The translations under genes were made by a program, and so were the position numbers. Shown piece after piece: positions 6,316-35,760 of a DNA stretch of 64,000 nt; the stretch's first letter is position 1; the number at the start of each line of letters is the position of its first letter. The DNA comes from an uncultured Candidatus Saccharibacteria bacterium (lineage in GTDB: Bacteria > Patescibacteriota > Minisyncoccia > Phycocordibacterales > UBA12445). Location: NCBI GenBank assembly GCA_964531375.1, contig CAZHDO010000001.1, forward strand, positions 2,282 to 66,281, read 5' to 3'. The notes below the pieces were generated by a model. It made no database searches and was not told where the DNA came from. It worked only from the letters and a program-made list of their open reading frames with translations.

Positions 6316-6918
6316 GTGAAAACATACGCATTTATAGACGTACAAAATACTTCCATTACAACTGAAAAATTATTAGGATTTAAGGTGGACTTGGTAAGGT
6401 TTTATGATTTTTTAAGGAAAGATTGGGGATGTGATGAAGTTTATTTGTATACGGGTTTCGATAAAAATGACATAGAATTAATTGAGGATTTAAAAACCCT
6501 GAAAGATAATGGATGTTTTGTTAGAGCAAAAGAATTTTGTTTATATAAAAATAAAGATAAAAGAATAAATATTATTTGTCCAAAATGTCAAAATAAATTT
6601 AGTAATGATGTCGATATGGGTTATAATAAAAAAGCAAATTGCGATGTAGATCTGACGGCAGATGCGATTGGTGTCGTCGAATCAGGAGACGAGGTATTTC
6701 TTTTTTCTGGCGATGGCGATTTTGAATATTTAGTAAGAAAATTTGTAGGAAATAAAACCTCTGTGCATATTGTTTCCAGTGCAAAGAAAATTAGAACAAG
6801 CTCTTCTTATTTTACTTCCAGGTTTTCAACAAAATTGAGGAAATTAATAAATGAATCAGGAAAGCCAGTCAATTTTATTGATATAAATAATATTAAGTTT
6901 AAGATAAATAGGGCCTAA
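6316..6918 (+). CDS. NYN-domain (LabA-like, PIN-related) protein with an embedded CxxC...C Zn-ribbon; GTG start
   Basis: The N-terminus YAFIDVQN...VYLYTG and the later DVDLTADAI...FLFSGDGDFEYLV resemble the NYN/DUF88 fold (acidic nuclease-like residues). CPKCQNKF...NCDVD is an inserted zinc ribbon. A paralog lies at 27697-28203. Confidence 0.55.
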   Translation: MKTYAFIDVQNTSITTEKLLGFKVDLVRFYDFLRKDWGCDEVYLYTGFDKNDIELIEDLKTLKDNGCFVRAKEFCLYKNKDKRINIICPKCQNKFSNDVDMGYNKKANCDVDLTADAIGVVESGDEVFLFSGDGDFEYLVRKFVGNKTSVHIVSSAKKIRTSSSYFTSRFSTKLRKLINESGKPVNFIDINNIKFKINRA

Positions 6919-21115: not shown

Positions 21116-22051
21116 TTATTTGAAAAAATTTTTTAAAGACTTCAGATATTTTTTATATTTTGGTTCAATTATGTCTTTTGTATCTTTCTTTGCTTGGTAG
21201 TTTATTAATGTCCCATTAATACCTATCTTATTATTCTTTAGTCTAATGGGTTTTTTTTCTAAATTTTCAAACCAAGAATATCTGTGTTTGCTGCTCATTA
21301 TGTATTCTATATCAGAATCATTTATTTGTGGTAAAAATTTAATTAGGACAGAAAGTCCGACTAGCGACGCCTTTACTTTATTCTCTTCTCTAATGAAGGT
21401 TGAATCATAGCCGTATCTGTGGTAATAAAAACTATCTTCAAGGATTATTATTTTAAAACCAGCACCCAATTGCTTTATTCCAAATGCCCATGAGTCATAA
21501 GCACCACCCAATGTTTCTTCGTACCTCCCAGAAATTTTCCAGCTCTTTTTTGTAAATAAATAGTTTCCACTTGGTCCAGGCCAGTAATATCCTGTCAGCG
21601 CATCCTGTAGTTCTACTTGGTTTTTTTTAAATATCCATTTGTGGTTTATTTCTTTTTTATCTTTTTTAAAATAACGCAATTCTCCAAAAGCCCCTACCTC
21701 AGCCTTGTTTTTCAGCATATGGCTCTTTAGGGGGTATATCGAGTTTGGTGCCAAGATATTGTCAGCATCTAAACAGAAAATAAGTTCATTTTTTGAAAAA
21801 TCTATCCCTGTATTTCTTCCGGCCGCAGCAGAACCTTTGTTTATGTTATGAGATACTGTTTTAATTTCTGGATATTTTTTTTGTAAGCTTTTGATTGTTT
21901 CTAAGGTTTTATCAGTGGATGCGTCGTCTATAATTATCAATTCGTCACCTTGTTCAAAATTATCTTTAAAAATTGATTCGACAGATTCGACTATTGTGTC
22001 TGCGCAATTATAGGCGGGCATAATAAAGCTAATATTTTGATTATCATTCAT
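21116..22051 (-). CDS. Glycosyltransferase family 2 (GT-A); the start is probably the internal Met (MNDNQNISFIMPAYN) rather than 22114
   Basis: ISFIMPAYNCADTI...IIIDDASTDKT...CLDADN are GT2 DxD motifs. Using the long start at 22114 would overlap the upstream gene by 70 nt. Confidence 0.8.
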   Translation of the reverse strand: MNDNQNISFIMPAYNCADTIVESVESIFKDNFEQGDELIIIDDASTDKTLETIKSLQKKYPEIKTVSHNINKGSAAAGRNTGIDFSKNELIFCLDADNILAPNSIYPLKSHMLKNKAEVGAFGELRYFKKDKKEINHKWIFKKNQVELQDALTGYYWPGPSGNYLFTKKSWKISGRYEETLGGAYDSWAFGIKQLGAGFKIIILEDSFYYHRYGYDSTFIREENKVKASLVGLSVLIKFLPQINDSDIEYIMSSKHRYSWFENLEKKPIRLKNNKIGINGTLINYQAKKDTKDIIEPKYKKYLKSLKNFFK

Positions 22052-22964
22052 TTTTTTTAAAGATAGCAATGATTGTGTGCCCCGGTATATATTCGGAAAC
22101 CGAAGACACACCAAGATTTGTTAATCTTACGAATATTTTTTTAATAAAAGACAGGATGGGGATATGTTTTTGTTTCATTTTCTCAATTATTTTCTTTTCA
22201 ATTATTTTTTCTGTAAATCCGAGGTGTTCTCTTTGGGTTGGTTCTAGAAAAATATTCCTTAATTTTATATTAAATGAATCCTGGAGTTTGATTAAAGAAT
22301 TAATATTCCACAGTCCCATGTGGTGGGGGGGCATATTTAAACAAAGGTTATTTTGTTTAAATATAAAGCTGTCGTTGTTTGGTACGCTTATTATCATTAA
22401 TCCACCAGGCTTTAATATTTTTAACGATGATTCTAGAAAAGATTTAACGTTGTTTATATGTTCTAATACTTGAAAAGAACAAACAACATTATAAAATAAG
22501 GGTTTTTTTTGAGAAAACTCTTCAATTGAATCCAGATAAACCGAAAGATTTTTTTCCTTACATTTTTTAACAGCGTTGGAATTTAGTTCCAACCCCTCAA
22601 TATTTGCTCCCTTTATTTTTATTTTTTCAATAAATTTTCCAGCCCCACATCCGATTTCCAACACACTATCGTTTTCTTTTATTATTTTTTCGACTACAGA
22701 ATATTCCCATTTCCAGTCTGAATAATACCAAGGTAGTTTTTCTAGCTCTTGATAAAAAAAATCATCACCAGATAAATTAAAAGGATAATAAAATTCATAA
22801 CCACATTGCACGCACCTAAAAAGTTGAATTTTATTGTTTTTAATTGTAGGAAAAACTATATCATTTTTTAGTTGTTGTTTGTATAGGTCGACAACAACAG
22901 AAGGGTCTATTTCTTTTATTAAAATGGTGTTATTTGTTTTATCGACAGGGCAAACGATTTCCAT
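22044..22964 (-). CDS. Class I SAM-dependent methyltransferase with an N-terminal Zn-ribbon
   Basis: CPVD...CVQCGYEF is a zinc ribbon, then VLEIGCGAGKFI (motif I) and NVVCSFQVLEHINN. Confidence 0.7.
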   Translation of the reverse strand: MEIVCPVDKTNNTILIKEIDPSVVVDLYKQQLKNDIVFPTIKNNKIQLFRCVQCGYEFYYPFNLSGDDFFYQELEKLPWYYSDWKWEYSVVEKIIKENDSVLEIGCGAGKFIEKIKIKGANIEGLELNSNAVKKCKEKNLSVYLDSIEEFSQKKPLFYNVVCSFQVLEHINNVKSFLESSLKILKPGGLMIISVPNNDSFIFKQNNLCLNMPPHHMGLWNINSLIKLQDSFNIKLRNIFLEPTQREHLGFTEKIIEKKIIEKMKQKHIPILSFIKKIFVRLTNLGVSSVSEYIPGHTIIAIFKKNE

Positions 22965-22965
22965 A

Positions 22966-24471
22966 TTAATTTTTTATTATATAACAAATATCATTTTCTG
23001 TTCTGATTCTATCTGGGATTTTATTTTGTGATAAAAAGTCATGTACTGCTTTTGTGCAACCATCCCAAGTATAATAGTCATCGATAATAATCACTCCACC
23101 CTTGGCAACGTTTTTATATAGATTATTTAAGCAAACCATTGTTGAATCATACCAATCAGAATCAAGTCGAAGTACTGCAATTCTTTGAGCTGGTATAAAG
23201 GGGGGGAGTGTTTCGTTAAACCATCCTTTTATTATTTGGTAATCTTTGACCTTGCTTTTTTTCATAGCATCTTCAGCATATTTAATTTCAGCAGAGCAGT
23301 TGTCAAAATATATTGGTGATTTTGTGTCTTTTTGCCAATTAATAGCCGATTCCCCGTCAATTTCTCTTGCTTTTGGTAGTCCTTCAAAACTATCAAATAA
23401 GTAGTATTTTCTGTCTCCATTAAGAACGTCTGCCACCGCCGCAATCATTCCACCTCTCCAAACACCGCATTCAACCACACATCCGTCTATGTGTGAAAAT
23501 CTATTTATTAAACCAAGATTATTACAAAAAATTTTCTTTGGAATCATTGTAAAATCGCGATATTTTTCAAATATCGAATTTTGTCTAGACTCCAAGTTTA
23601 TTTTTTTGATTTTTCTAATTAGTAGTTTAAATGGGTATTTTATAAAAGAGGGGGTAACTCTTTTTATTTTTTTAATAAAAAGGTTTTTGATACTTCCATT
23701 GAAGTGGTCTTGATAAGTAAATAAGTCCGCTAGGTAATTTCGCATTGTAATTTTAGGGTGTGTGAGCGGAAGGGTTATTTCTTCGGATTGTAGATTTGCG
23801 TATTTTGCGGGTTTTTTTGTGTGGGTTGCCTCATTATTAAATCCAATATTTGAAACTAAATTTACATTTGGTAAAATCGCTAATCCCTTGTGTTTGTGTA
23901 CCGATAAATTCCACTGGGCATCCCATATGTGTTTTCTCATTTCGGAATTAAGGAGTTCAAAATCATTATATTTCCATGCCCTTCGCCATGTTGCCCAGCC
24001 CCAATTGTGGGTATATTCAGAAAAATAATATGACCCCCAGCCTCTTTTTCTTCCATATTGGAAATTATCTCCACTAATATGCATTATTTTTTCATTACCC
24101 TTGTATTTAGATAAAAGTTCTTGGCAGAAGTAAAAAAAGGATTGATTTGGAACACAGTCATCTTCCAAAATTATGCCTGCCTCAACGTTATCGAAAAACC
24201 AGTTGATTGCGGTTACTGGACCAAGTCCACAACCCAGATTCTTCTCTTGAAAAAGTTTTTTAACCTCACAATCCCAGTCTATTTTTTCAGTAATCTTTCT
24301 GGATTCTATGCATTTTTCTTTCTCGTTTATCGTATTTTCTCTATAGCCATCTTGGGCTATAAATAATTTCTTTGGTTTTATTTTCCTTATCTCTTCGAAT
24401 ACAACTTTTGTTGTATCTGGGCGGTTAAATATTATAAATAGTATAGGGGTATTAAAGTCTGCTTTTTTCAT
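22966..24471 (-). CDS. Fusion protein: N-terminal GT-A-like glycosyltransferase domain (GNT-I/HlpA-like) plus a C-terminal TylF/MycF-family (macrocin-type) sugar O-methyltransferase
   Basis: N-terminus: TPILFIIFNRPDTTKVVFEEIRKIKPKKLFIAQDGYR. C-terminus: GCVVECGVWRGGMIAAVADVLNGDRKYYLFDSFEGLP...LRLDSDWYDSTMVCL...GGVIIIDDY matches TylF family motifs, including metal-binding DxD. Confidence 0.7.
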   Translation of the reverse strand: MKKADFNTPILFIIFNRPDTTKVVFEEIRKIKPKKLFIAQDGYRENTINEKEKCIESRKITEKIDWDCEVKKLFQEKNLGCGLGPVTAINWFFDNVEAGIILEDDCVPNQSFFYFCQELLSKYKGNEKIMHISGDNFQYGRKRGWGSYYFSEYTHNWGWATWRRAWKYNDFELLNSEMRKHIWDAQWNLSVHKHKGLAILPNVNLVSNIGFNNEATHTKKPAKYANLQSEEITLPLTHPKITMRNYLADLFTYQDHFNGSIKNLFIKKIKRVTPSFIKYPFKLLIRKIKKINLESRQNSIFEKYRDFTMIPKKIFCNNLGLINRFSHIDGCVVECGVWRGGMIAAVADVLNGDRKYYLFDSFEGLPKAREIDGESAINWQKDTKSPIYFDNCSAEIKYAEDAMKKSKVKDYQIIKGWFNETLPPFIPAQRIAVLRLDSDWYDSTMVCLNNLYKNVAKGGVIIIDDYYTWDGCTKAVHDFLSQNKIPDRIRTENDICYIIKN

Positions 24472-24480
24472 TTTTATAAA

Positions 24481-25173
24481 TTATTTAATTAAATCAGCAA
24501 AAATATTACCTTCTTCTGTTCGGTCTTTTCCTGGTCTGTATTCCTTTGGTATTTCTTTTGACAGGCTTTTGTTTCTGCTATTAAAGATAATGTTACTATA
24601 TCCTATCATTTTTGCGATTTCATTTAAATAATTTGGGGTTAGTAGGTTTTTATGTATGTGCTTATCCCATTCTTCGACATAGACACCTTCTTTTCCTTTA
24701 TTAAAATTAGAATTTTTTCGCATCGAATATAGAAGATTTGGTGTATTTATTCTATGTATTGAATTACGTTTTAGAACCCTAAAGGTCTCTGATAGAAAAA
24801 TAATTTGTTCTTTTTGGTCTAGATGCTCTATAAAATCCTCATGGAAAATAACGTCAATTGAATTATCGCTAAAAGGTAACCCTGTTTTCAAAATATTGAC
24901 GCCAAAGAAGTCATCTATATTACCTCTTATTGTTTCTGGGTAGTATACGTCAGTATATGATTCAAGATATTTTTCGAAAGGTTCAAAAGAAAGATCTATG
25001 TTTACCCAGCCCTTGATTATTCTAGGACCACAGCCAAAATGTAATTTTATATTTTTTTTATTTTCGCAAAATTTTGAAAGTTTTTTATGCTCTTTAAGTC
25101 TATAAAAATCATCAATTTCTTTGATTTTTTTTTGATGTTCATTATTTATTTTTCTCAGTATTCTTTCGAACAT
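24481..25173 (-). CDS. Class I SAM-dependent methyltransferase
   Basis: LHFGCGPRIIKGWVNIDL is motif I. DVIFHEDFIEHLDQ is also present. Confidence 0.6.
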   Translation of the reverse strand: MFERILRKINNEHQKKIKEIDDFYRLKEHKKLSKFCENKKNIKLHFGCGPRIIKGWVNIDLSFEPFEKYLESYTDVYYPETIRGNIDDFFGVNILKTGLPFSDNSIDVIFHEDFIEHLDQKEQIIFLSETFRVLKRNSIHRINTPNLLYSMRKNSNFNKGKEGVYVEEWDKHIHKNLLTPNYLNEIAKMIGYSNIIFNSRNKSLSKEIPKEYRPGKDRTEEGNIFADLIK

Positions 25174-25180
25174 TTTTTCT

Positions 25181-26005
25181 TTAGTTTATGCTTATAAATT
25201 TTTTATTTATAGCTATTATGTTTTGGTATATAAAAATCTCATTTTTTGAATTATATTCACCAAGAGGGAGGAGGGAGTTTTTCTTTAAGCGATAAAATTC
25301 AAAATTATTTAGTAAATTATAAAAATCTTTCAAGAAAACACGACCTGAGATGTTTGGTTCGTTAAATTCAAATTGTATTACTTTAATTTTATTTTTTTTA
25401 AGTAACTCCTTGGCCCCTTTTAAGACTTGCAATTCAAGACCTTCAACGTCTATTTTAACGAAATCTATCTCATCAATTTTATTTTTCGAGCAATAATTAT
25501 CTATGGTGTCAGAATAAAAGTTAATTTCTTCAATTTCATCCGGAATGTTGTAATTTTTTAAAATTTCTCGATTTGTTGTTCCTAGCTGTGTTCCTGGAAG
25601 GTTTTTGTAAGAATAAAGGGTTTTTTCCGGGGTTAATATCTCGCCCATTCCTTTATTTTCACAAAAGATATTTTTTTCCTTAGATGTTTTTTTTAAAATT
25701 TCATAAGCTCTTGGATTTGGTTCAAAAGAAAAGATGTCGGCCTTTTTGTAGTACGCTCTTAATAAATGGCTGTATTCTCCAACGTTGGCACCAATATCAA
25801 AGAATATGGTTTTTTTTTCTTGGGATAGGTATTTAGACAAACCATCTTTAATAAGATATTTCTCACCAGTTTTTTCTGCGTCCCCGAAGTCTCCAATGCC
25901 GATTTCAGAATGGGCAAATCGCAGGATATCTAGGTTGATTAACGATATTAGAGATTTAATCAATTTTATTGTTAGGTTTCTAATTCTGGATTTTATCTCT
26001 TTCAT
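25181..26005 (-). CDS. FkbM-family methyltransferase
   Basis: FFDIGANVGEYS...FSFEPNPRAYEIL...FVKIDVEGLELQVLKG is the FkbM signature. Confidence 0.75.
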   Translation of the reverse strand: MKEIKSRIRNLTIKLIKSLISLINLDILRFAHSEIGIGDFGDAEKTGEKYLIKDGLSKYLSQEKKTIFFDIGANVGEYSHLLRAYYKKADIFSFEPNPRAYEILKKTSKEKNIFCENKGMGEILTPEKTLYSYKNLPGTQLGTTNREILKNYNIPDEIEEINFYSDTIDNYCSKNKIDEIDFVKIDVEGLELQVLKGAKELLKKNKIKVIQFEFNEPNISGRVFLKDFYNLLNNFEFYRLKKNSLLPLGEYNSKNEIFIYQNIIAINKKFISIN

Positions 26006-26006
26006 G

Positions 26007-27314
26007 TTATTTTGTTTTAATTGTTTTGTAATTCAAAATTGATGATAGTTTGCCCATTTTTTTCCATCTGTAATCGAGCCTATAATTATTTGCGTCTGTT
26101 ATTTCAAAACTAAGATTTTTTTTAAGGTCAACATATTCTACAAAAGGCTTTTGCAGGGAGACTTCAATATAGTATTGATTTATATTTAAGAGGTTTTTGG
26201 GTACTTCTATCGTTGTTTTATAAACTCCTGGCTGGTAATCTTTAAGACAAGGAGAACCGTCTGTTTCAGAAGAATGCAGTATTAATTCCCCGGAAACTCC
26301 ATAGAATAGTACACAAATTAATGCTTTAGGTAATGGTTCTTTAATTAAATATTCAATTTCTATCGAAAAATTTTCATCAACAGGAATAAAGTTACTTGGG
26401 TCATTGTTCTTGTTTAGAAAAGAAATTTTTGTTATTTGATGTTTTTTACTGGGATCTTCTTCATAAGAGCTAACTGATTCGCTTTTATTGCTGGATAGAT
26501 TGATATAGTCCTGGATTGCTTCAGATGTTTCTTTAAAGCTTTTAATTTGACCTTTTTCTAAAACAATACATTTTTGGCAGAGGTTTTGAATTGCACTTAT
26601 GTTGTGACTAACAAAGAGAACCGTTCGTCCTCCTTCTTTTGATATCTCTCCCATTTTTCCGAGACATTTTTTTTGAAATTCAGCATCACCAACTGCAAGT
26701 ACCTCGTCTATTATAAGAATGTCTGGTTCCATGTGTGCTGCCACAGAGAAGGCGAGGCGGACATACATCCCCGACGAGTAGTATTTAACAGGTGTGTCTA
26801 GGAATTTTTCAATCCCAGCGAACTCTACGATTGTGTCAAATTTTTCACCAATTTCTTTTTGTGACATACCGAGAATAGCTCCATTTAAGAAAATATTCTC
26901 TCTTCCTGAGAGTTCTGGATGAAATCCTGTGCCAACCTCAAGAAGTGAACCGACTTTTCCATGAAGTTTTATTTCACCATGCGTTGGCGGTGTTATTTGA
27001 GATAAAATTTTTAGTAAGGTTGATTTTCCGGCACCATTTCTTCCAATTATTCCAATTACTTCACCTTTTTTAACCTCAAAACTCACGTCTTTAAGTGCCC
27101 AAAATTCTTCCTTGGTTTCCATGCCAGCCACCTGTTTGGCTTTCTTTTTTAGAAAAGCAAAAGGGGAGGTTATTGCATTTGTAAGAATATCTCGTAGTGC
27201 AATATAATTACCTCTTTGGTGTGTAATGTTATATCTCTTGCTTATGTTTTTTACTTCAATAATTGGATGGTCCATTTTTTTATTAATATTATTCTCTTTT
27301 GATTCTTTGTGCAC
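26007..27314 (-). CDS. wzt: Polysaccharide ABC exporter ATP-binding protein (Wzt/TagH-type) with a C-terminal extension of about 170 aa resembling the carbohydrate-binding domain of Wzt
   Basis: Walker A is GIIGRNGAGKSTLLKIL, the signature is YSSGMYVRLAF, and Walker B is ILIIDEVLAVGD. The C-terminal extension is predicted beta-rich. Confidence 0.85.
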   Translation of the reverse strand: MHKESKENNINKKMDHPIIEVKNISKRYNITHQRGNYIALRDILTNAITSPFAFLKKKAKQVAGMETKEEFWALKDVSFEVKKGEVIGIIGRNGAGKSTLLKILSQITPPTHGEIKLHGKVGSLLEVGTGFHPELSGRENIFLNGAILGMSQKEIGEKFDTIVEFAGIEKFLDTPVKYYSSGMYVRLAFSVAAHMEPDILIIDEVLAVGDAEFQKKCLGKMGEISKEGGRTVLFVSHNISAIQNLCQKCIVLEKGQIKSFKETSEAIQDYINLSSNKSESVSSYEEDPSKKHQITKISFLNKNNDPSNFIPVDENFSIEIEYLIKEPLPKALICVLFYGVSGELILHSSETDGSPCLKDYQPGVYKTTIEVPKNLLNINQYYIEVSLQKPFVEYVDLKKNLSFEITDANNYRLDYRWKKMGKLSSILNYKTIKTK

Positions 27315-27696: not shown

Positions 27697-28203
27697 TTAT
27701 GGGGTCTTTTCTTTTTTATACTCTAGAATTTCTTTTGAATTGTTTAAAAATCTGAGGTAGCTTTTTAGTATGTCAACTTTAAACAATGCTGAAAATTGTG
27801 ATTTATTCGGTATCGTTATAAAACCTAATTTATTTTTTTTGAGTAGATATTCAACTAAACAATAAAAGTCCCCATCTCCTGTTACAATGACCGCTTTGTC
27901 AAAATTATTAAATTGAATCATTGTATGCAGTACTAATTCCGCATCGCAGTTGCCTTTTGTGGTTCCATCTTGGTGTCCTAACGTTGGTTTAAAGATACAT
28001 TTATAACCTGTGCGATTAAGAAAATCGTACATTTTTTTATTACTTTCGACATAGCCAATAAATAGATAGGCCTCTTTTATTCCATATTTTTCTTTCAAAT
28101 AAATACGGAAACGCGCAAAATCTAAAATCCAACCCTGACTGCGTATGTTTAGGTTAAGGTTTTGACTATCTATAAAAGCGTAATTTTTTTCTTCTTTTCT
28201 CAT
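27697..28203 (-). CDS. NYN-domain (LabA-like) protein, paralog of 6316-6918
   Basis: YAFIDSQNLN...AYLFIGY...GNCDAELVLH...AVIVTGDGDFYCLVEYL shares the NYN/DUF88 pattern with the first paralog (YAFIDVQN...DVDL...SGDGDFEYLV). Confidence 0.6.
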   Translation of the reverse strand: MRKEEKNYAFIDSQNLNLNIRSQGWILDFARFRIYLKEKYGIKEAYLFIGYVESNKKMYDFLNRTGYKCIFKPTLGHQDGTTKGNCDAELVLHTMIQFNNFDKAVIVTGDGDFYCLVEYLLKKNKLGFITIPNKSQFSALFKVDILKSYLRFLNNSKEILEYKKEKTP

Positions 28204-28221: not shown

Positions 28222-29040
28222 TTATATTACATCTGCGAAATACCTCTCTGTTTTTTTGAAAGAATATGTTCCAAAGGCGAGTAGCGCGAGACAAGCGATA
28301 AGGGAAATAAAGATAAGATTCCAGTTAATTACAGCTGTATTCAATATAGCAGCTCTCGCGTTTTGAATTACCCCTGTCATTGGGTTTATGGCTAAAAGCC
28401 AGGAATATTCTCCCGCTATACTTGCAGGATAGATTACGGGAGTAAGATACATTAACATTTGAACAAAGAACGGTAGAATATATCTAAGGTCTCTGTATTT
28501 CACATTTATTGAAGCTAGAAAAAGTCCTAAGCCGACTGAAGCCATAAAGGTTATCAATAGAAGAAGTGGTATTATTAATACTCCAATTAAATTAGGCATA
28601 AAACCGTAATATATCATTAGAACTCCAAGAACAAGAAAGGCAATAGAAAAATCTACTATTTTTGTTAGAACAGAAGAGATAGGGAGGATCAGACGAGGAA
28701 AGTAAACTTTTGTTATAATAGCTTGGTTTGATATTAGACAATTGCTTGTGTCGCCGAGCGCGCTAGAAAAGAAATTCCAAAATAAAAGTCCTGTGTATAT
28801 AAAAATTGGGTAGGGAACATTATCAGATGGCATTTTCGCTAGGTTTCCGAAGAATACAGTAAAGACAAACATCGTCATGAGCGGTTGAAATATGGCCCAT
28901 CCGGCTCCTACTATTGTTTGCTTGTATCTAACCTTAAGGTCTCTCCATGTAAAAAAGTACATTAATTCTTTGTAGGCCCAAAGTTCGCGGATATCATTCC
29001 AGCTAAACATTTTTTTGGGCTTTATAATTGTTGTTGCCAT
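28222..29040 (-). CDS. wzm: Polysaccharide ABC exporter permease (ABC-2 type, Wzm/TagG-like)
   Basis: 272 aa with 6 predicted TM helices. It starts with the ABC-2 hallmark ...ELWAYKELMYFFTWRDLKVRYKQTIVGAGWAIFQPL. Confidence 0.8.
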   Translation of the reverse strand: MATTIIKPKKMFSWNDIRELWAYKELMYFFTWRDLKVRYKQTIVGAGWAIFQPLMTMFVFTVFFGNLAKMPSDNVPYPIFIYTGLLFWNFFSSALGDTSNCLISNQAIITKVYFPRLILPISSVLTKIVDFSIAFLVLGVLMIYYGFMPNLIGVLIIPLLLLITFMASVGLGLFLASINVKYRDLRYILPFFVQMLMYLTPVIYPASIAGEYSWLLAINPMTGVIQNARAAILNTAVINWNLIFISLIACLALLAFGTYSFKKTERYFADVI

Positions 29041-29452: not shown

Positions 29453-30490
29453 ATGTTTTTAAATAAAATGAAAAAAGAAAATAAGAATATTGGGGAAAAT
29501 TTAAATAAGAGTGAGATTGTTATTTATCAAGATAAAGATAAACGTATCTTTGTAGACGCTGTTCTTGATGAAGATACTGTTTGGTTAAATTTAGATCAAA
29601 TGTCTGTCTTGTTTGATAGGGATAAGTCTGTTATTTCTCGACATATTAAAAATATTTTTGTAGAAAAGGAATTGAGCTATAGTTCAGTTGTTGCAAATTT
29701 TGCAACAACTGCCGCTGATGGAAAAACGTATAAGGTGGATTACTATAATTTAGATATTATTATCTCTGTGGGTTATAGGGTTAAATCAAAAAATGGCGTA
29801 AGTTTTAGAATTTGGGCGACAAAAACTCTCAAGGATCACATTATTAAAGGGTATACATTGAATGCTGATAGGTTAGAAGAAATAAAAGCAAAACAGTTTT
29901 GTGAATTTGAACAAGCGGTTGGTTTGATTAAAAAGACAATAGAAACTAGACAGCTTTCCGGAGGTGAGGAAAGCGGCCTTTTAAAGGTGATTACAGAATA
30001 CACTAACTCCTGGTTGTTATTGCAAAAATACGATGAAGATGGTTTATTTTTGCCAAAGAAGGCAAAAAAATCTTCGTTTTCACTCGAATATGATTTTGCG
30101 TTAAAGGCAATTTCTAATTTAAAGCAAGATTTGATTAAAAAAGGCGAGGCGAGCGCTCTTTTTGGTACAGAAAGATCAAGTCTTCAGGGGATAATAGGAA
30201 ATATTTATCAGACTTTCGGAGGCTCGGAATTATATTTGAGCATAGAAGAGAAGGCGGCACATCTTCTTTATTTTATAATTAAGGACCATCCTTTTTCAGA
30301 TGGAAATAAACGCATTGGTTCTTTTTTGTTTATCGTTTTTCTGGCCCAGAATAAACATTTACTTAAGAGTAACGGCGATAAGAAGATAAATGATAACGCT
30401 TTAGTGGCTATTGCTTTACTTGTGGCGGAAAGTGATCCATTGCACAAAGACACATTGATTAAACTGATAACTAACTTAATTATTGATTAA
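29453..30490 (+). CDS. RhuM-family N-terminal domain fused to a C-terminal Fic/Doc (death-on-curing type) domain
   Basis: GKTYKVDYYNLDIIISVGYRVKSKNGVSFRIWATKTL is the RhuM signature. HPFSDGNKRIGSF matches the Doc/Fic motif HxFx(D/N)GNKR. Confidence 0.7.
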   Translation: MFLNKMKKENKNIGENLNKSEIVIYQDKDKRIFVDAVLDEDTVWLNLDQMSVLFDRDKSVISRHIKNIFVEKELSYSSVVANFATTAADGKTYKVDYYNLDIIISVGYRVKSKNGVSFRIWATKTLKDHIIKGYTLNADRLEEIKAKQFCEFEQAVGLIKKTIETRQLSGGEESGLLKVITEYTNSWLLLQKYDEDGLFLPKKAKKSSFSLEYDFALKAISNLKQDLIKKGEASALFGTERSSLQGIIGNIYQTFGGSELYLSIEEKAAHLLYFIIKDHPFSDGNKRIGSFLFIVFLAQNKHLLKSNGDKKINDNALVAIALLVAESDPLHKDTLIKLITNLIID

Positions 30491-30493
30491 AAT

Positions 30494-31339
30494 ATGAAAT
30501 ATAAAATTGGAGTGGCTGGGGTTGGTATGGTTGGTGCACAGGTGAAAAAATGGTTTGAATTAAAAAAGTTTGAAGTTTTTGCTTATGACAGTTTTAAAAA
30601 TATTGGTAAATTTGAGGATTTGCAATCGGCTGATATTGTTTTCGTCTGTTTGCCAACGCCACATAGTAAAAGAAGCGATACTGGGGTGGATGTTGAGGTT
30701 TTTAAGAAATTCTTCCGCAATTTTAATGGGCCTAAAATTTTTGTAATAAAATCGACAGTTCCGCCAGGAACCACTGAGTTTCTTCAAGAAGCTTTTCCTG
30801 ATTACTCTTTTCTTCATAGTCCGGAATTTCTCACTGAGTCTACTGCTTGGGAGGATTTTTCTAAGCCAGTTTTTCAATTACTAGGATATACGGAAAAAAG
30901 TAAGAATATCGCCAACGACGTTATAAAGATATTACCAAGAGGAAAGGTAAACGAGGTGGTAAGAAGTAATGAAAGTGAAATATTTAAATTTACTCGAAAC
31001 GCTTTCTTCGCAATGAAGGTAATTTTTGCTAATCAGATATATGATTTGTCTCAAAAATTCGGTGCTGATTATGATGTTCTTAAGAAATTAATGTTGGCGG
31101 ACCCTTGGATTGGTGGACATCATTTAGAGGTTATTCACAAGGGTTATCGAGGTTTTGGTGGAAAATGTTTACCAAAAGATTTAAAGACCTTTATCAAAGT
31201 GTTTGAAAAAAAGAGAGTTACACCCTCGCTGTTTAATGTCGTAGATCAGATTAATGAAACCATGTTAAAAAAACAAAAACTAGGAGAAACTTTAAAAAAA
31301 TATTGGTTAGGTAATTATAATGAGCCAGAAAAAAAATAA
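30494..31339 (+). CDS. Nucleotide-sugar dehydrogenase (UDP-glucose/GDP-mannose dehydrogenase family) lacking the C-terminal UDP-binding domain
   Basis: KIGVAGVGMVG is the Rossmann motif. IKSTVPPGTT, SPEFLTESTA and the catalytic-Cys motif GGKCLPKD all match the family. The ORF ends about 100 aa early and overlaps the galE start by 20 nt. Confidence 0.6.
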   Translation: MKYKIGVAGVGMVGAQVKKWFELKKFEVFAYDSFKNIGKFEDLQSADIVFVCLPTPHSKRSDTGVDVEVFKKFFRNFNGPKIFVIKSTVPPGTTEFLQEAFPDYSFLHSPEFLTESTAWEDFSKPVFQLLGYTEKSKNIANDVIKILPRGKVNEVVRSNESEIFKFTRNAFFAMKVIFANQIYDLSQKFGADYDVLKKLMLADPWIGGHHLEVIHKGYRGFGGKCLPKDLKTFIKVFEKKRVTPSLFNVVDQINETMLKKQKLGETLKKYWLGNYNEPEKK

Positions 31340-33516: not shown

Positions 33517-35760
33517 GTGCGCCTATCTCCAATTAGAATGAATAAAATAAGTGCAAGCACAGAAAGCGTGCTAAGAAATATAATCATAGGAGGGTTGTTT
33601 CTAGTGCCGTTTTTACCATTTATAGTTACAGGCTCGATGTTCTTTCCTTTTATCACAGGGAAGAATTTTGCTTTTCGCATAATCATTGAAATTATTTTTT
33701 CGATTTGGGCGATTCTTGCTGTTTTTGATAAGAGCCTTATTCCTAAGAAAAATAATTTACTGCTGGCTGTAGGTAGTTTTGTTGGAATAATCGCAATTGC
33801 TGATATTTTAGGGGTCAATTTTTATCGAAGTTTTTGGTCAAATTATGAAAGAATGGAAGGTTTAGTTTCTTTACTCCATATTTTTGCATATTTTATTTTG
33901 CTTATTTCTGTTTTTACAGAGAGTCTTTGGAGGAAATACTTTAAGGCTATTTTCATTTCAGGAATTGGTTTAATGGTTTACGGTGCGATACAGCTAATGG
34001 GTTGGGCGAACATTAATCAGGGCGGAGTTCGTTTGGATGCGACTTTTGGTAATACCATATACTTTGCCGTTCACATGTTGTTTATTTGTTTCTTATCAGC
34101 GCTCTTTCTTTTCCGAAACAAGATCGGGAATAATGCAAAAACCTGGTTTTATGGTTTGATGTCTTTGTTTTCTGCTTTTTTCCTTTTAGAAACTGCGACC
34201 AGGGGCACCGCTATTGGATTATTGCTTGGTATTGTAACAGCCGCACTCATCGTTTTCTATAAAAGTACCGGCCAACATAAAGAGATTGCAAAATATGTAA
34301 TGGGATCTGTTGTCGCTTTGCTTGTGATTTTCTTATTTGCAAGAAATTTAAGTTTTGTAAAAGAAAGCCCTATTCTTGGTAGATACGCTGAATTGTCCAT
34401 ATCAAGTGTCTTTAATCAGCCAAGATATATGGTTTGGAACATGGCTTTCAAGGGGTTTTTAGAAAATCCAATATTGGGTTGGGGGCAGGATAACTTTAAT
34501 GTAGTGTTTAATAAGTACTATGACCCAAGAATGTACGCACAGGAGCCATGGTTTGATAGGGCTCATGACGTATTTTTTGACTGGTTAATAGCTGGTGGTC
34601 TTCTTGGGCTTTTGTCTTACCTTTCTATTTTTGCAGTTGCTTTGTTTTTTATCTGGGATGAGAAAATAACACGAAGATTTACTCTTGTTGATAGAAGTGT
34701 GATTACGGGCCTTCTTGTTGGTTATTTCGTTCATAATATATTTGTTTTTGACAACCTTATGAGCTATGCGATGTTTTTCGCTATTATCGCTTATATTTAC
34801 AATGAAACTAGATATCAAGATGGTGATGTTAAATTAGAAGATAAAGGAGAAAGAAAGGTTGAACCTTTTCTCGAAGAAGAGTTTGCTGCTTACGTTGCAA
34901 TTTCTTTAGTGATTGTTGGCTTCTTTGGAACTATGTATTTTGTTAATGTAAAACCTATTCTTGCTTCAAAAACTCTCATTCAAGCGCTGTCTACAAGAAG
35001 CTCTTCGGTGAATGATATGAACCAAAGCTTAGATATGTTTAAAAAAGTTTTCTCTTACGGTTCTTTTGGGACCACAGAGGCAAGGGAACAATTAGTGCAA
35101 AGAGCAATAAGTATGTCTCGTGCACAAGATATAGATAATTCTATTAAACAAAACTTTTTCCTTCTTGCAAGAGATGAGATGGAAAAACAGATTGCTGCTA
35201 ATCCGTTAGACGCTAGATATCGGGTTTTCCAAAGCTCACTATTTTCTGCTTATGGTCTTGTTAGTGAAGCCATGAAGAATATTGAGATTGCAAGAGACCT
35301 GTCTCCTAAAAAACAAACTATTCTTTTTGAGCTGGTTGCTGCAAATATAAACAAGGGTGATATAGAGACTGCGCTGTCTATTGCTAAGAACGCTTATGAC
35401 TTGGAGCCAACTTTCGCGGAGTCTAGAAATATTTACACCATCGCTGCTATTTATGCTGGTAAAAATGACGTTGTAGTAGAATTACTAGGAACAAGTACTC
35501 CGCCAGTAGAAGATCGATTCATAAATGCTTATGTTGCAACAAAGCAATACAAGAAAGTTGCTGAGATTTGGTTAAAGAGGATCGAAATGGACCCAAAGAA
35601 TGCCCAGTATCATGTCTATCTCTCTGCGACATATTTAGCGGACAAGCAAAAGGAAAAATCAATTGAAGAGCTTAAAAAGGCGATTGAATTAAATCCAGCC
35701 CTAAAAGACCAAGCAACAAAATTTATAAAAGATATTAGAGCCGGAAAAGTTCCACAGTAA
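33517..35760 (+). CDS. O-antigen ligase/polymerase-like (Wzy_C) polytopic membrane protein with a C-terminal TPR repeat domain; GTG start at 33517 or ATG at 33538
   Basis: There are about 11 TM helices with a large loop (GWGQDNFNVVFNKYYDP) typical of the O-antigen ligase family. The C-terminal 250 aa carry TPR-like repeats (AYDLEPTFAE..., IELNPALKDQA). Confidence 0.7.
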   Translation: MRLSPIRMNKISASTESVLRNIIIGGLFLVPFLPFIVTGSMFFPFITGKNFAFRIIIEIIFSIWAILAVFDKSLIPKKNNLLLAVGSFVGIIAIADILGVNFYRSFWSNYERMEGLVSLLHIFAYFILLISVFTESLWRKYFKAIFISGIGLMVYGAIQLMGWANINQGGVRLDATFGNTIYFAVHMLFICFLSALFLFRNKIGNNAKTWFYGLMSLFSAFFLLETATRGTAIGLLLGIVTAALIVFYKSTGQHKEIAKYVMGSVVALLVIFLFARNLSFVKESPILGRYAELSISSVFNQPRYMVWNMAFKGFLENPILGWGQDNFNVVFNKYYDPRMYAQEPWFDRAHDVFFDWLIAGGLLGLLSYLSIFAVALFFIWDEKITRRFTLVDRSVITGLLVGYFVHNIFVFDNLMSYAMFFAIIAYIYNETRYQDGDVKLEDKGERKVEPFLEEEFAAYVAISLVIVGFFGTMYFVNVKPILASKTLIQALSTRSSSVNDMNQSLDMFKKVFSYGSFGTTEAREQLVQRAISMSRAQDIDNSIKQNFFLLARDEMEKQIAANPLDARYRVFQSSLFSAYGLVSEAMKNIEIARDLSPKKQTILFELVAANINKGDIETALSIAKNAYDLEPTFAESRNIYTIAAIYAGKNDVVVELLGTSTPPVEDRFINAYVATKQYKKVAEIWLKRIEMDPKNAQYHVYLSATYLADKQKEKSIEELKKAIELNPALKDQATKFIKDIRAGKVPQ

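Follow-up and report, generated by a model that had tools for sequence, protein, structure and literature searches.

A predicted glycosyltransferase and TylF-type O-methyltransferase fusion encoded in a Wzm/Wzt surface-glycan locus of a Candidatus Saccharibacteria genome

The locus and the fused gene

We analyzed a 64,000-nucleotide stretch of DNA (the window; contig CAZHDO010000001.1, positions 2,282 to 66,281) from an uncultured Candidatus Saccharibacteria bacterium, a member of the Patescibacteria, and focused on a gene at 22966..24471 of the minus strand. Its product is predicted to be a bifunctional enzyme, in which an N-terminal GT-A glycosyltransferase (GT) domain is followed by a C-terminal TylF-type O-methyltransferase domain. 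The gene is a single open reading frame (ORF) of 501 aa with an ATG start, a stop codon at 22966-22968, and no interruption; its extent is supported by the ORF list, by an identical protein on other contigs, and by full-length homologues. The initial annotation of this stretch, in which the strand was absent, had proposed that one polypeptide joins the two halves, and the uninterrupted ORF and the fused homologues described below bear this out. The translation contains TPILFIIFNRPD, FIAQDGYR, ILEDDC, ECGVWRGG, DRKYYLFDSFEGLP, LDSDWYDS, and IIDDYY, and every motif that had been quoted was found in it.

The window is chromosomal, as it carries GroEL, SecA, IF-2, and ClpB. Identity of this GroEL is 86% to proteins from Paceibacterota and Parcubacteria MAGs and ~80% to Vogelbacteria, which places the host among the Patescibacteria. 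Its glycan region extends over approximately 29 kb (~6.3-35.8 kb) and encodes about ten methyltransferase domains (Methyltransf_11, Methyltransf_23, FkbM, DUF268, and TylF types), eight GT domains (four GT4, two GT2, one GT11, and the N-terminal GT-A domain of the fusion), three SDR epimerase/dehydratases, and one Wzy_C protein. The occurrence of some ten methyltransferase domains in one region suggests that the glycan is unusually heavily O-methylated. Patescibacteria are generally understood to lack an outer membrane, and therefore the product of this locus is not a classical lipopolysaccharide (LPS) O-antigen.

The genes around the fusion are arranged in the order wzm, NYN-domain gene, wzt, FkbM-type methyltransferase, Methyltransf_11-type methyltransferase, fusion, Methyltransf_23-type methyltransferase (MT23), GT2, DUF268 methyltransferase, GT2, methyltransferase, GT4, and GT11. 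Wzm (28222..29040, minus strand) is an ABC-2 permease recognized by the Pfam ABC2_membrane domain. Wzt (26007..27314, minus strand) is an ATP-binding cassette (ABC) ATPase with a C-terminal domain resembling a carbohydrate-binding module (CBM), as indicated by the Pfam ABC_tran and Wzt_C domains and by alignment to the Wzt of Aquifex. The Wzt_C match (E 2e-6, 28.3 bits) falls just under the 30.4-bit cut-off, and residues 67-390 align to the full-length Aquifex protein (8dku) up to chain residue 353 of 404; taken together, these results uphold the earlier assignment of a CBM-bearing Wzt to this locus. The fusion is located two genes downstream of Wzt. The genes for the FkbM-type (25181-26005, minus strand) and Methyltransf_11-type (24481-25173, minus strand) methyltransferases, both assigned with Pfam, are encoded between wzt and the fusion. 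Packing on the same strand is tight: the upstream methyltransferase gene stops 9 nt before the ATG of the fusion, and the ATG of MT23 (22044..22964, minus strand; a 306-aa class-I methyltransferase by Pfam) follows 1 nt past its stop codon. We considered MT23 as a methyltransferase of the WbdD type and found this unsupported, as its best PDB matches are generic class-I enzymes similar to UbiG.

The initial annotation had also raised the possibility that a frameshift artifact joins two separate genes. A few observations are compatible with an assembly or frame error: the linker DNA at the junction contains A-runs, one fragmented metagenome-assembled genome (MAG) at NCBI has the gene in two pieces at the ends of two contigs, and the halves are truly separate genes in five other lineages. 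However, the identical 501-aa protein is recorded on two contigs, of 133.5 kb (ENA) and 311.9 kb, and 43 clusters of fused homologues span several phyla as well as several data sources. Moreover, the basic amphipathic character of the linker is kept across the fusions, which a frame error would not yield. On the strength of the identical protein on two contigs and the 43 fused clusters we reject the artifact, which we regard as extremely improbable. The fusion is genuine and recurrent.

In the fragmented NCBI MAG, the two pieces of the gene (proteins MEI6296588.1 and MEI6296916.1) are annotated as a 333-aa "hypothetical protein, partial" and a 173-aa "TylF/MycF/NovP-related O-methyltransferase, partial". 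Users of the database would overlook the fused architecture for that organism.

Two catalytic domains and a basic linker

The C-terminal domain (residues ~311-501; 22969..23541, minus strand) was assigned to SAM (S-adenosylmethionine)- and metal-dependent O-methyltransferases of the TylF/MycF/NovP type on the basis of Pfam, PDB sequence matches, and Foldseek. The profile PF05711 matches residues 322-490 with an E-value of 1.4e-37 and 129.8 bits against a cut-off of 23. When PDB sequences were searched with phmmer, NovP, SpnH, and MycF were matched with E-values of ~1e-21 and CalS11 with 5e-4. A full-length AlphaFold2 model has a mean predicted local distance difference test score (pLDDT) of 89.5, which exceeds 90 across most of the TylF domain. 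Foldseek comparison of this domain showed a class-I Rossmann methyltransferase fold whose closest solved structures are members of the TylF family, including NovP (2wk1, E 2.2e-14) and SpnH (4ce0, target-normalized TM-score 0.74) as well as MycF and CalS11. The proposal that the C-terminal ~230 aa belong to the TylF family is thus confirmed by profile, sequence, and structure searches alike.

The residues expected of such an enzyme are in place. The glycine-rich SAM-binding motif E334-CGVWRGG-341 (23449..23472, minus strand) aligns to VETGVWRGG of NovP, SpnH, and MycF, and none of E334, C335, G336, G340, and G341 varies among 30 full-length homologues. Two acidic motifs, D437-S-D439 (23155..23163, minus strand) and D464-D465 (23077..23082, minus strand), align respectively to the "DGD" and "DDY" of the same three enzymes, and all four aspartates are likewise invariant in the 30 homologues. 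The corresponding pairs in the phmmer alignment are VECGVWRGG/VETGVWRGG, LRLDSDWYDS/LRMDGDLYES, and IIDDYY/IVDDYM. Following the NovP and MycF structures, we take D437-S-D439 to provide a metal ligand and the putative catalytic base, and D464-D465 to be further metal ligands.

The domain shares its fold, SAM motif, aspartate metal ligands, and catalytic aspartate with TylF, MycF, NovP, and SpnH. Those enzymes are stand-alone proteins with an N-terminal lid and act on small-molecule glycosides, whereas the domain encoded in the window is fused behind a GT and resides in a cell-surface glycan context. No N-terminal lid of the TylF family was found in it: the PF05711 match begins only at profile position 83 of 264, so that the first ~80 positions are missing. 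Close stand-alone relatives are also only 232-237 aa long. Judging from these sequences, the domain appears to represent a short, lid-less subtype. The closest solved relatives all methylate sugar hydroxyls, and the C-terminal domain, whose catalytic residues are intact, is predicted to function as a sugar O-methyltransferase of the TylF family.

The N-terminal domain (residues 1-~258; 23698..24471, minus strand) is delimited by AlphaFold2 models, Foldseek, and stand-alone homologues of ~290 aa that are 55-65% identical to it. The search of this half against GT-A family profiles that the initial annotation had called for returned no family above threshold. The best Pfam match is GT25 at an E-value of 0.02, NCBIfam contains no match, and no PDB sequence is matched either by the single sequence or by a 26-sequence profile. 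When the 26 stand-alone relatives were scanned one by one, we obtained only sub-threshold matches, to GT25 (11 relatives), GT2 (6), and GNT-I (6, best E 9e-4); the GNT-I profile PF03071 does not match the window protein itself.

The structural picture is clearer. A model of the N-terminal domain alone has a pLDDT of 88.7 and a predicted template modeling score (pTM) of 0.88, and its best Foldseek matches are POMGnT1 (E 2.8e-12) and GnT-I (2e-11), with a TM-score of about 0.59, and then GnT-II (1e-8). Many GT2-type GT-A enzymes follow at lower ranks; nearly all listed matches are GT-A enzymes, a few are UDP-glucose pyrophosphorylases, and all have a probability of 1.0. In the model, E103-D104-D105 (24157..24165, minus strand) directly follows strand 98-103, that is, it occupies the canonical position of the DxD motif of GT-A enzymes. 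D104 and D105 are invariant both in 30 fusion proteins and in 26 stand-alone domains, and E103 is at least 90% conserved in the former. Other residues that are invariant in both alignments, D41, D184, H217, and D249, are candidates for the catalytic base.

Based on these models, we consider the N-terminal domain to be a GT-A glycosyltransferase with a GT13-like fold and an EDD motif. The eukaryotic GlcNAc-transferases of families GT13 (GnT-I, POMGnT1) and GT16 (GnT-II) are its best structural matches and share the canonical GT-A motif of the EDD type, but identity over the structural alignment is only 14-15%, and the setting of the domain is bacterial and cytoplasmic. The earlier description of this half as a GnT-I-like GT-A domain therefore stands at the level of fold and motif, and not at the level of sequence: no sequence match places the domain in CAZy GT13 (PF03071). 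The additional label "HlpA-like" could not be confirmed and is absent from the source names of the homologues.

The two domains are connected by a linker of residues ~259-310 (23542..23697, minus strand), which we describe as a basic amphipathic helical segment from its charge count, hydrophobic moment, and AlphaFold2 model. Residues 256-300 include 12 K/R and only one D/E, and the 18-residue window with the highest helical hydrophobic moment in the whole protein is 265-282. The model places helices at 261-272 and 275-307, of which only the second is long. The sequence of the linker is poorly conserved, yet 27 of 29 homologues carry a net charge of at least +7 over the aligned segment. It probably serves as a membrane-surface anchor between the catalytic domains. 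We rejected a coiled-coil ruler like that of WbdD, because the segment is too short for this (~50 residues) and is basic and amphipathic. Structure prediction of the complete protein recovered both the GT-A and the TylF fold; the drop in pTM from 0.88 for the N-terminal domain to 0.55 for the full-length model suggests that the two domains are flexibly tethered.

Homologues and conserved genomic neighborhoods

A search of 1.84 billion representative sequences with the whole protein returned 21,869 matches at E <= 1e-3, among which 3,102 reach E <= 1e-30; most of the best-scoring representative clusters match via the N-terminal domain. The initial annotation had asked whether the fusion recurs in related genomes, and it does so widely: 43 of the 120 best homologue clusters have the fused architecture, at 37-60% identity, and the order is always GT followed by TylF. 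Some fusions depart from this plan: P0106 has a TPR insert, and P0090, P0105, and P0109 have a Methyltransf_24 domain in addition to TylF. The GT domain is also found alone (~290 aa), in tandem (P0028, P0039, P0078), fused to FkbM-type methyltransferases (P0034, P0053, P0055), and within proteins as long as 2183 aa.

Among the GTDB loci, the fused form occurs in Patescibacteria (L001-L003) and in Imperialibacter (L004). In five further loci (L005-L009), from a Pyrinomonadaceae MAG (an acidobacterium), three cyanobacteria including Pseudanabaena biceps PCC 7429, and one betaproteobacterium, the halves are adjacent genes in the order of the fusion and in the same reading frame. In L007 they are separated by the stop codon and 9 nt. 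That the sugar added by the GT would be the substrate of methylation is supported most strongly by sequence comparison, namely by this pattern of fused and split forms together with the independent fusion of the GT domain to two unrelated methyltransferase families.

Two further observations may be added. The loss of one stop codon in a split locus would restore the fusion. A Chloroflexia Wzm/Wzt locus (L010, 10001-11794) carries two copies of the GT13-like domain in tandem, 54% and 46% identical to the domain in the window, and this pair is flanked by GT11 and GT2 genes resembling those of the window.

We then compared the genomic neighborhoods. A second methyltransferase is encoded directly after the fusion or the split pair in 11 of 12 other loci (L001-L004, L006-L009, L082-L084). 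The three patescibacterial loci L001-L003 have the arrangement Wzm, Wzt, fusion, MT23, with an NYN gene between Wzm and Wzt in L001; compared with their counterparts in the window, Wzm and the nucleotide-binding domain (NBD) of Wzt are 65-76% identical (65-69% for Wzm) and MT23 is 41-43% identical. By synteny, the two methyltransferase genes that separate wzt from the fusion in the window (24481..26005) are absent at that position in these loci. More distant genomes show the same elements. A 1-Mb JGI contig (L082) encodes Wzm, a Wzt with a Wzt_C domain, two genes, the fusion, a ~300-aa methyltransferase, and a GT4; in a Bacteroidota locus (L083), a Wzt with Wzt_C and one gene precede the fusion, a methyltransferase, and a GT4; and in L084 the series fusion, methyltransferase, GT4 lies two genes behind a Wzt-like gene that is cut by the contig end. 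In L004 and L007 the GT/TylF module is again followed by a methyltransferase and a GT4. The string running from Wzm and Wzt to the fusion and its methyltransferase is kept across phyla, while the other GTs of the loci vary.

The TylF domain also travels on its own. Stand-alone relatives that are 52-57% identical to it adjoin Wzm/Wzt in four loci (L038, L050, L069, L070), in three of them immediately after Wzt, and no copy of the GT domain was found near them. We counted a Wzt as present in any of the fetched loci if its NBD was at least 50% identical and lay within the fetched flank. By this measure a Wzt is found in 14 of the 21 loci with a TylF-type gene and in 6 of the 62 loci with the GT domain only (odds ratio 18.7, p 9e-7, without correction for phylogeny or for the choice of loci). 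We conclude that the invariant core of the module consists of the GT, the TylF domain, and the second methyltransferase, and that the exporter is tracked by the methyltransferase and not by the GT.

A possible capping function and related systems

The reading we propose, to which we would give an even chance, is that the fusion is an add-then-methylate capping enzyme in the ABC-transporter (Wzm/Wzt) surface-glycan pathway of a Patescibacteria cell. The enzyme would be a bifunctional peripheral-membrane protein of this pathway, with the basic amphipathic linker keeping both domains at the cytoplasmic membrane face. The GT13-like domain, using its E/D-D-D motif and a divalent metal, would take one sugar from a nucleotide sugar and attach it to the non-reducing end of a lipid-linked glycan, and the tethered lid-less TylF domain, dependent on SAM and a metal, would then O-methylate the added sugar. 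The methyltransferase encoded by the next gene, MT23, would probably contribute a second methyl group. The methylated terminal sugar would block elongation and probably also serve as an end mark that is recognized by the CBM of Wzt prior to export. In this scheme we infer which reaction comes first, that the sugar is terminal and ends the chain, that the CBM recognizes it, and that the linker acts at the membrane. The initial annotation had likewise suggested a chain-terminating or capping enzyme; proximity to a CBM-bearing Wzt, the conserved gene string, the stand-alone TylF relatives beside Wzt, and the enrichment of TylF-type genes near Wzt agree with that part of the idea, and the terminator role itself is suggested by genomic context. 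The stand-alone TylF enzymes that adjoin Wzt fit a simpler version of the scheme, in which a sugar of the repeat unit would be capped directly.

The order of the two reactions can be considered in the light of the characterized relatives. NovP, SpnH, and MycF act on sugars that are already attached to an aglycone, and CalS11 acts on a TDP-sugar (TDP-rhamnose). Conceivably, the nucleotide sugar is first methylated by the TylF domain, in the manner of CalS11, and then transferred by the GT, in which case the fusion would channel the modified donor. CalS11 is among both the structural and the sequence matches, the missing lid would leave an open site into which a small nucleotide sugar could fit, and channeling is something a fusion would favor. 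Against this, the enzymes that act after transfer are far closer to the domain (E ~1e-21) than CalS11 is (E 5e-4), and the stand-alone relatives next to Wzt are found without a GT domain, which fits action on a finished polymer. As the TylF domain resembles NovP, SpnH, and MycF more than it does CalS11, we favor methylation after transfer and consider the donor-first order improbable.

Several observations weigh against a capping enzyme. The presence of about ten methyltransferase domains in the glycan region may mean that methylation occurs throughout the glycan and not just at its end, and termination could fall to another enzyme. No coiled-coil ruler was found in the 501-aa protein, unlike the described terminators of this pathway (PMC11231755). 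The link to the exporter is not universal, as we had to conclude from four loci (L004, L006, L007, L009) in whose fetched sequence no Wzm/Wzt was found, for L004 and L007 within 10 kb; the module of L007 lies near a different exporter, an ABC type in which the transmembrane domain and the NBD are fused. With only 6 of 62 loci showing a Wzt near the GT domain without TylF, the stand-alone GT is mostly encoded away from Wzt, and the GT as such is therefore a general module. In addition, the inter-domain geometry of the full-length model is of low confidence, as reflected in its pTM of 0.55.

The CBM of Wzt raises a further point of this kind. A shared cap would predict related CBMs, and we expected a common CBM sequence among the loci that carry the fusion; none was found when the window was compared with L001-L003. 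The Wzt NBDs of these loci are 74-76% identical to that of the window and their CBMs are 64-81% identical to one another, whereas the C-terminal ~175 residues of the window Wzt, which comprise its CBM, have no detectable similarity to those CBMs. The CBM of the window looks like a module swap that coincides with the two extra methyltransferase genes; as a speculation, these genes might accompany a different end group.

Some of these observations would be accommodated if the enzyme instead added an internal or branching sugar in each repeat and the TylF domain methylated it each time, with no terminating role. Such an activity would help to give a heavily O-methylated, hydrophobic glycan, and the approximately ten methyltransferase and eight GT domains of the region do suggest extensive methylation. 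It would also be in keeping with the scarcity of the stand-alone GT domain near Wzt, with its occurrence, like that of polymerase modules, within multi-GT proteins of up to 2183 aa, with fusion and split loci that lack Wzm/Wzt, and with a CBM that does not appear to co-vary with the fusion. On the other hand, the TylF-type gene is strongly and closely tied to Wzt, with stand-alone relatives directly behind the Wzt CBM, and the string from Wzt to the fusion and its methyltransferase is kept across phyla while the remaining GTs vary. We regard repeated decoration as possible but rather unlikely.

Capping of a Wzm/Wzt-exported glycan by a fused enzyme would have precedents. WsaE of Geobacillus stearothermophilus NRS 2004/3a combines a methyltransferase with two rhamnosyltransferase domains, and its methyltransferase domain ends an S-layer glycan, exported through Wzm/Wzt, with a 2-O-methyl cap (PMC2943079). 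Like the fusion described here, it unites GT and O-methyltransferase in one polypeptide, and its gene directly follows wzm-wzt; its methyl cap has been proposed to end chain growth and to be read by Wzt (PMC2943079). Its host has no outer membrane, and its cluster includes the oligosaccharyl:protein transferase WsaB (PMC2943079), where the window has the 747-aa Wzy_C protein. The methyltransferase of WsaE is N-terminal, however, and its two GT domains also polymerize the repeat; judging by the description of WsaE, the window protein is set apart by a single GT domain that is N-terminal and of GT13-like fold.

In protein A064R of the chlorovirus PBCV-1 (GT-GT-methyltransferase), domain D3 has been shown experimentally to methylate, at O-2, the terminal rhamnose added by domain D2, and the separate methyltransferase A061L adds a second methyl group at O-3 (PMC9614988). 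This pair mirrors the combination of GT, TylF domain, and adjacent MT23 in the window. A064R differs in that it acts on a viral capsid N-glycan instead of a lipid-linked polymer, in a pathway that does without an ABC exporter. D3 is described only as a class-I SAM methyltransferase (PMC9614988), and its likeness to the TylF domain is by description. A viral fold library contained TylF-like methyltransferases of giant viruses; matches to both domains together were loose, with very high root-mean-square deviations, and uninformative.

The initial annotation had invoked WbdD of Escherichia coli O9a as an analogy. In WbdD (E. coli O9a/O8) and the coiled-coil terminators of Klebsiella pneumoniae O3, O7, and O12, a methyl or methyl-phosphate end group stops polymerization and is needed for recognition by the CBM of Wzt (PMC3482155, PMC11231755). 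The analogy holds as a matter of logic, in that WbdD is a membrane-associated enzyme that produces a methyl-containing end group. It does not hold for the protein itself: WbdD has no GT domain, and the kinase (in O9a) and the long coiled-coil ruler that it carries are both absent from the fusion. The PDB matches of the two fusion domains and of MT23 do not include the WbdD methyltransferase. Another precedent is provided by fused GT-O-methyltransferase genes in the "TET" operon (wzm-wzt-GT-O-methyltransferase) for the common polysaccharide antigen of Pseudomonas syringae; the likeness is by description, the GT of that operon is a GT4 polymerase resembling WbdA, and the product is an LPS antigen of a diderm. 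WsaE, A064R, and the P. syringae fused genes, which the initial annotation did not mention, are closer precedents than WbdD.

Add-then-methylate fusions and methyl caps are therefore already established. What differs here is the combination of a GT13-like GT-A domain with a lid-less TylF domain, the order of the domains, the amphipathic linker between them, the second methyltransferase as an obligate partner, and the host group. We found no description of this architecture in the literature searched, and nothing relevant on TylF in O-antigen or LPS contexts.

As a tentative generalization, which we think somewhat doubtful at present, the GT13-like GT, the lid-less TylF domain, and the second methyltransferase may form a portable capping cassette that makes a multiply O-methylated terminal sugar as a stop-and-export mark for CBM-bearing Wzt. 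It would operate without a coiled-coil ruler and with an internal amphipathic linker as its anchor, and would be distributed from Patescibacteria to Bacteroidota and split in cyanobacteria. If so, the N-terminal domain would define a new family of bacterial glycosyltransferases, thousands of members strong, and the cassette would offer a first way to study how the ultra-small Patescibacteria assemble their surface glycans and set glycan size. A capping role of the fusion would add a third methyl-type terminator to the ABC-transporter glycan pathways, one that joins a GT to TylF without kinase or coiled coil. A testable function would thereby also be assigned to two groups of proteins, a very large GT-A family for which Pfam has no model and a short TylF subtype encoded together with Wzt. 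Patescibacteria genomes are typically small, and here ~29 kb of such a genome is devoted to a glycan; capping and export bear on the surface that is shown to hosts and phages. The case is a tractable one, with two soluble catalytic domains, clear active-site residues, split genes as natural controls, and a conserved partner methyltransferase.

Other genes of the locus are noted here for completeness. The 747-aa protein with a Wzy_C (O-antigen ligase) domain is encoded on the plus strand at 33517-35760, adjoining the locus, and could by analogy be an O-oligosaccharyltransferase or ligase, like WsaB of the S-layer glycosylation clusters. The NYN-domain (PIN-like nuclease) gene between wzm and wzt (27697-28203, minus strand) has a 62% identical counterpart in the Azambacteria locus L001 (8132-8629), and a second NYN gene (6316-6918, plus strand) marks the left edge of the glycan region. 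A RhuM/Fic-domain gene (29453-30490, plus strand) adjoins wzm and is followed by a 281-aa ORF similar to UDP-glucose/GDP-mannose dehydrogenases (the two span 29453-31339, plus strand). The match of this ORF to the N-terminal NAD-binding Pfam domain begins only at profile position 73, which may mean that the gene is truncated or that its start has been placed wrongly. At 21116-22114 (minus strand), the mechanically derived ORF of 332 aa with a TTG start overlaps the end of MT23 by 71 nt; in the public call the protein has 311 aa and the overlap is 8 nt, and the TTG start is probably too far upstream.

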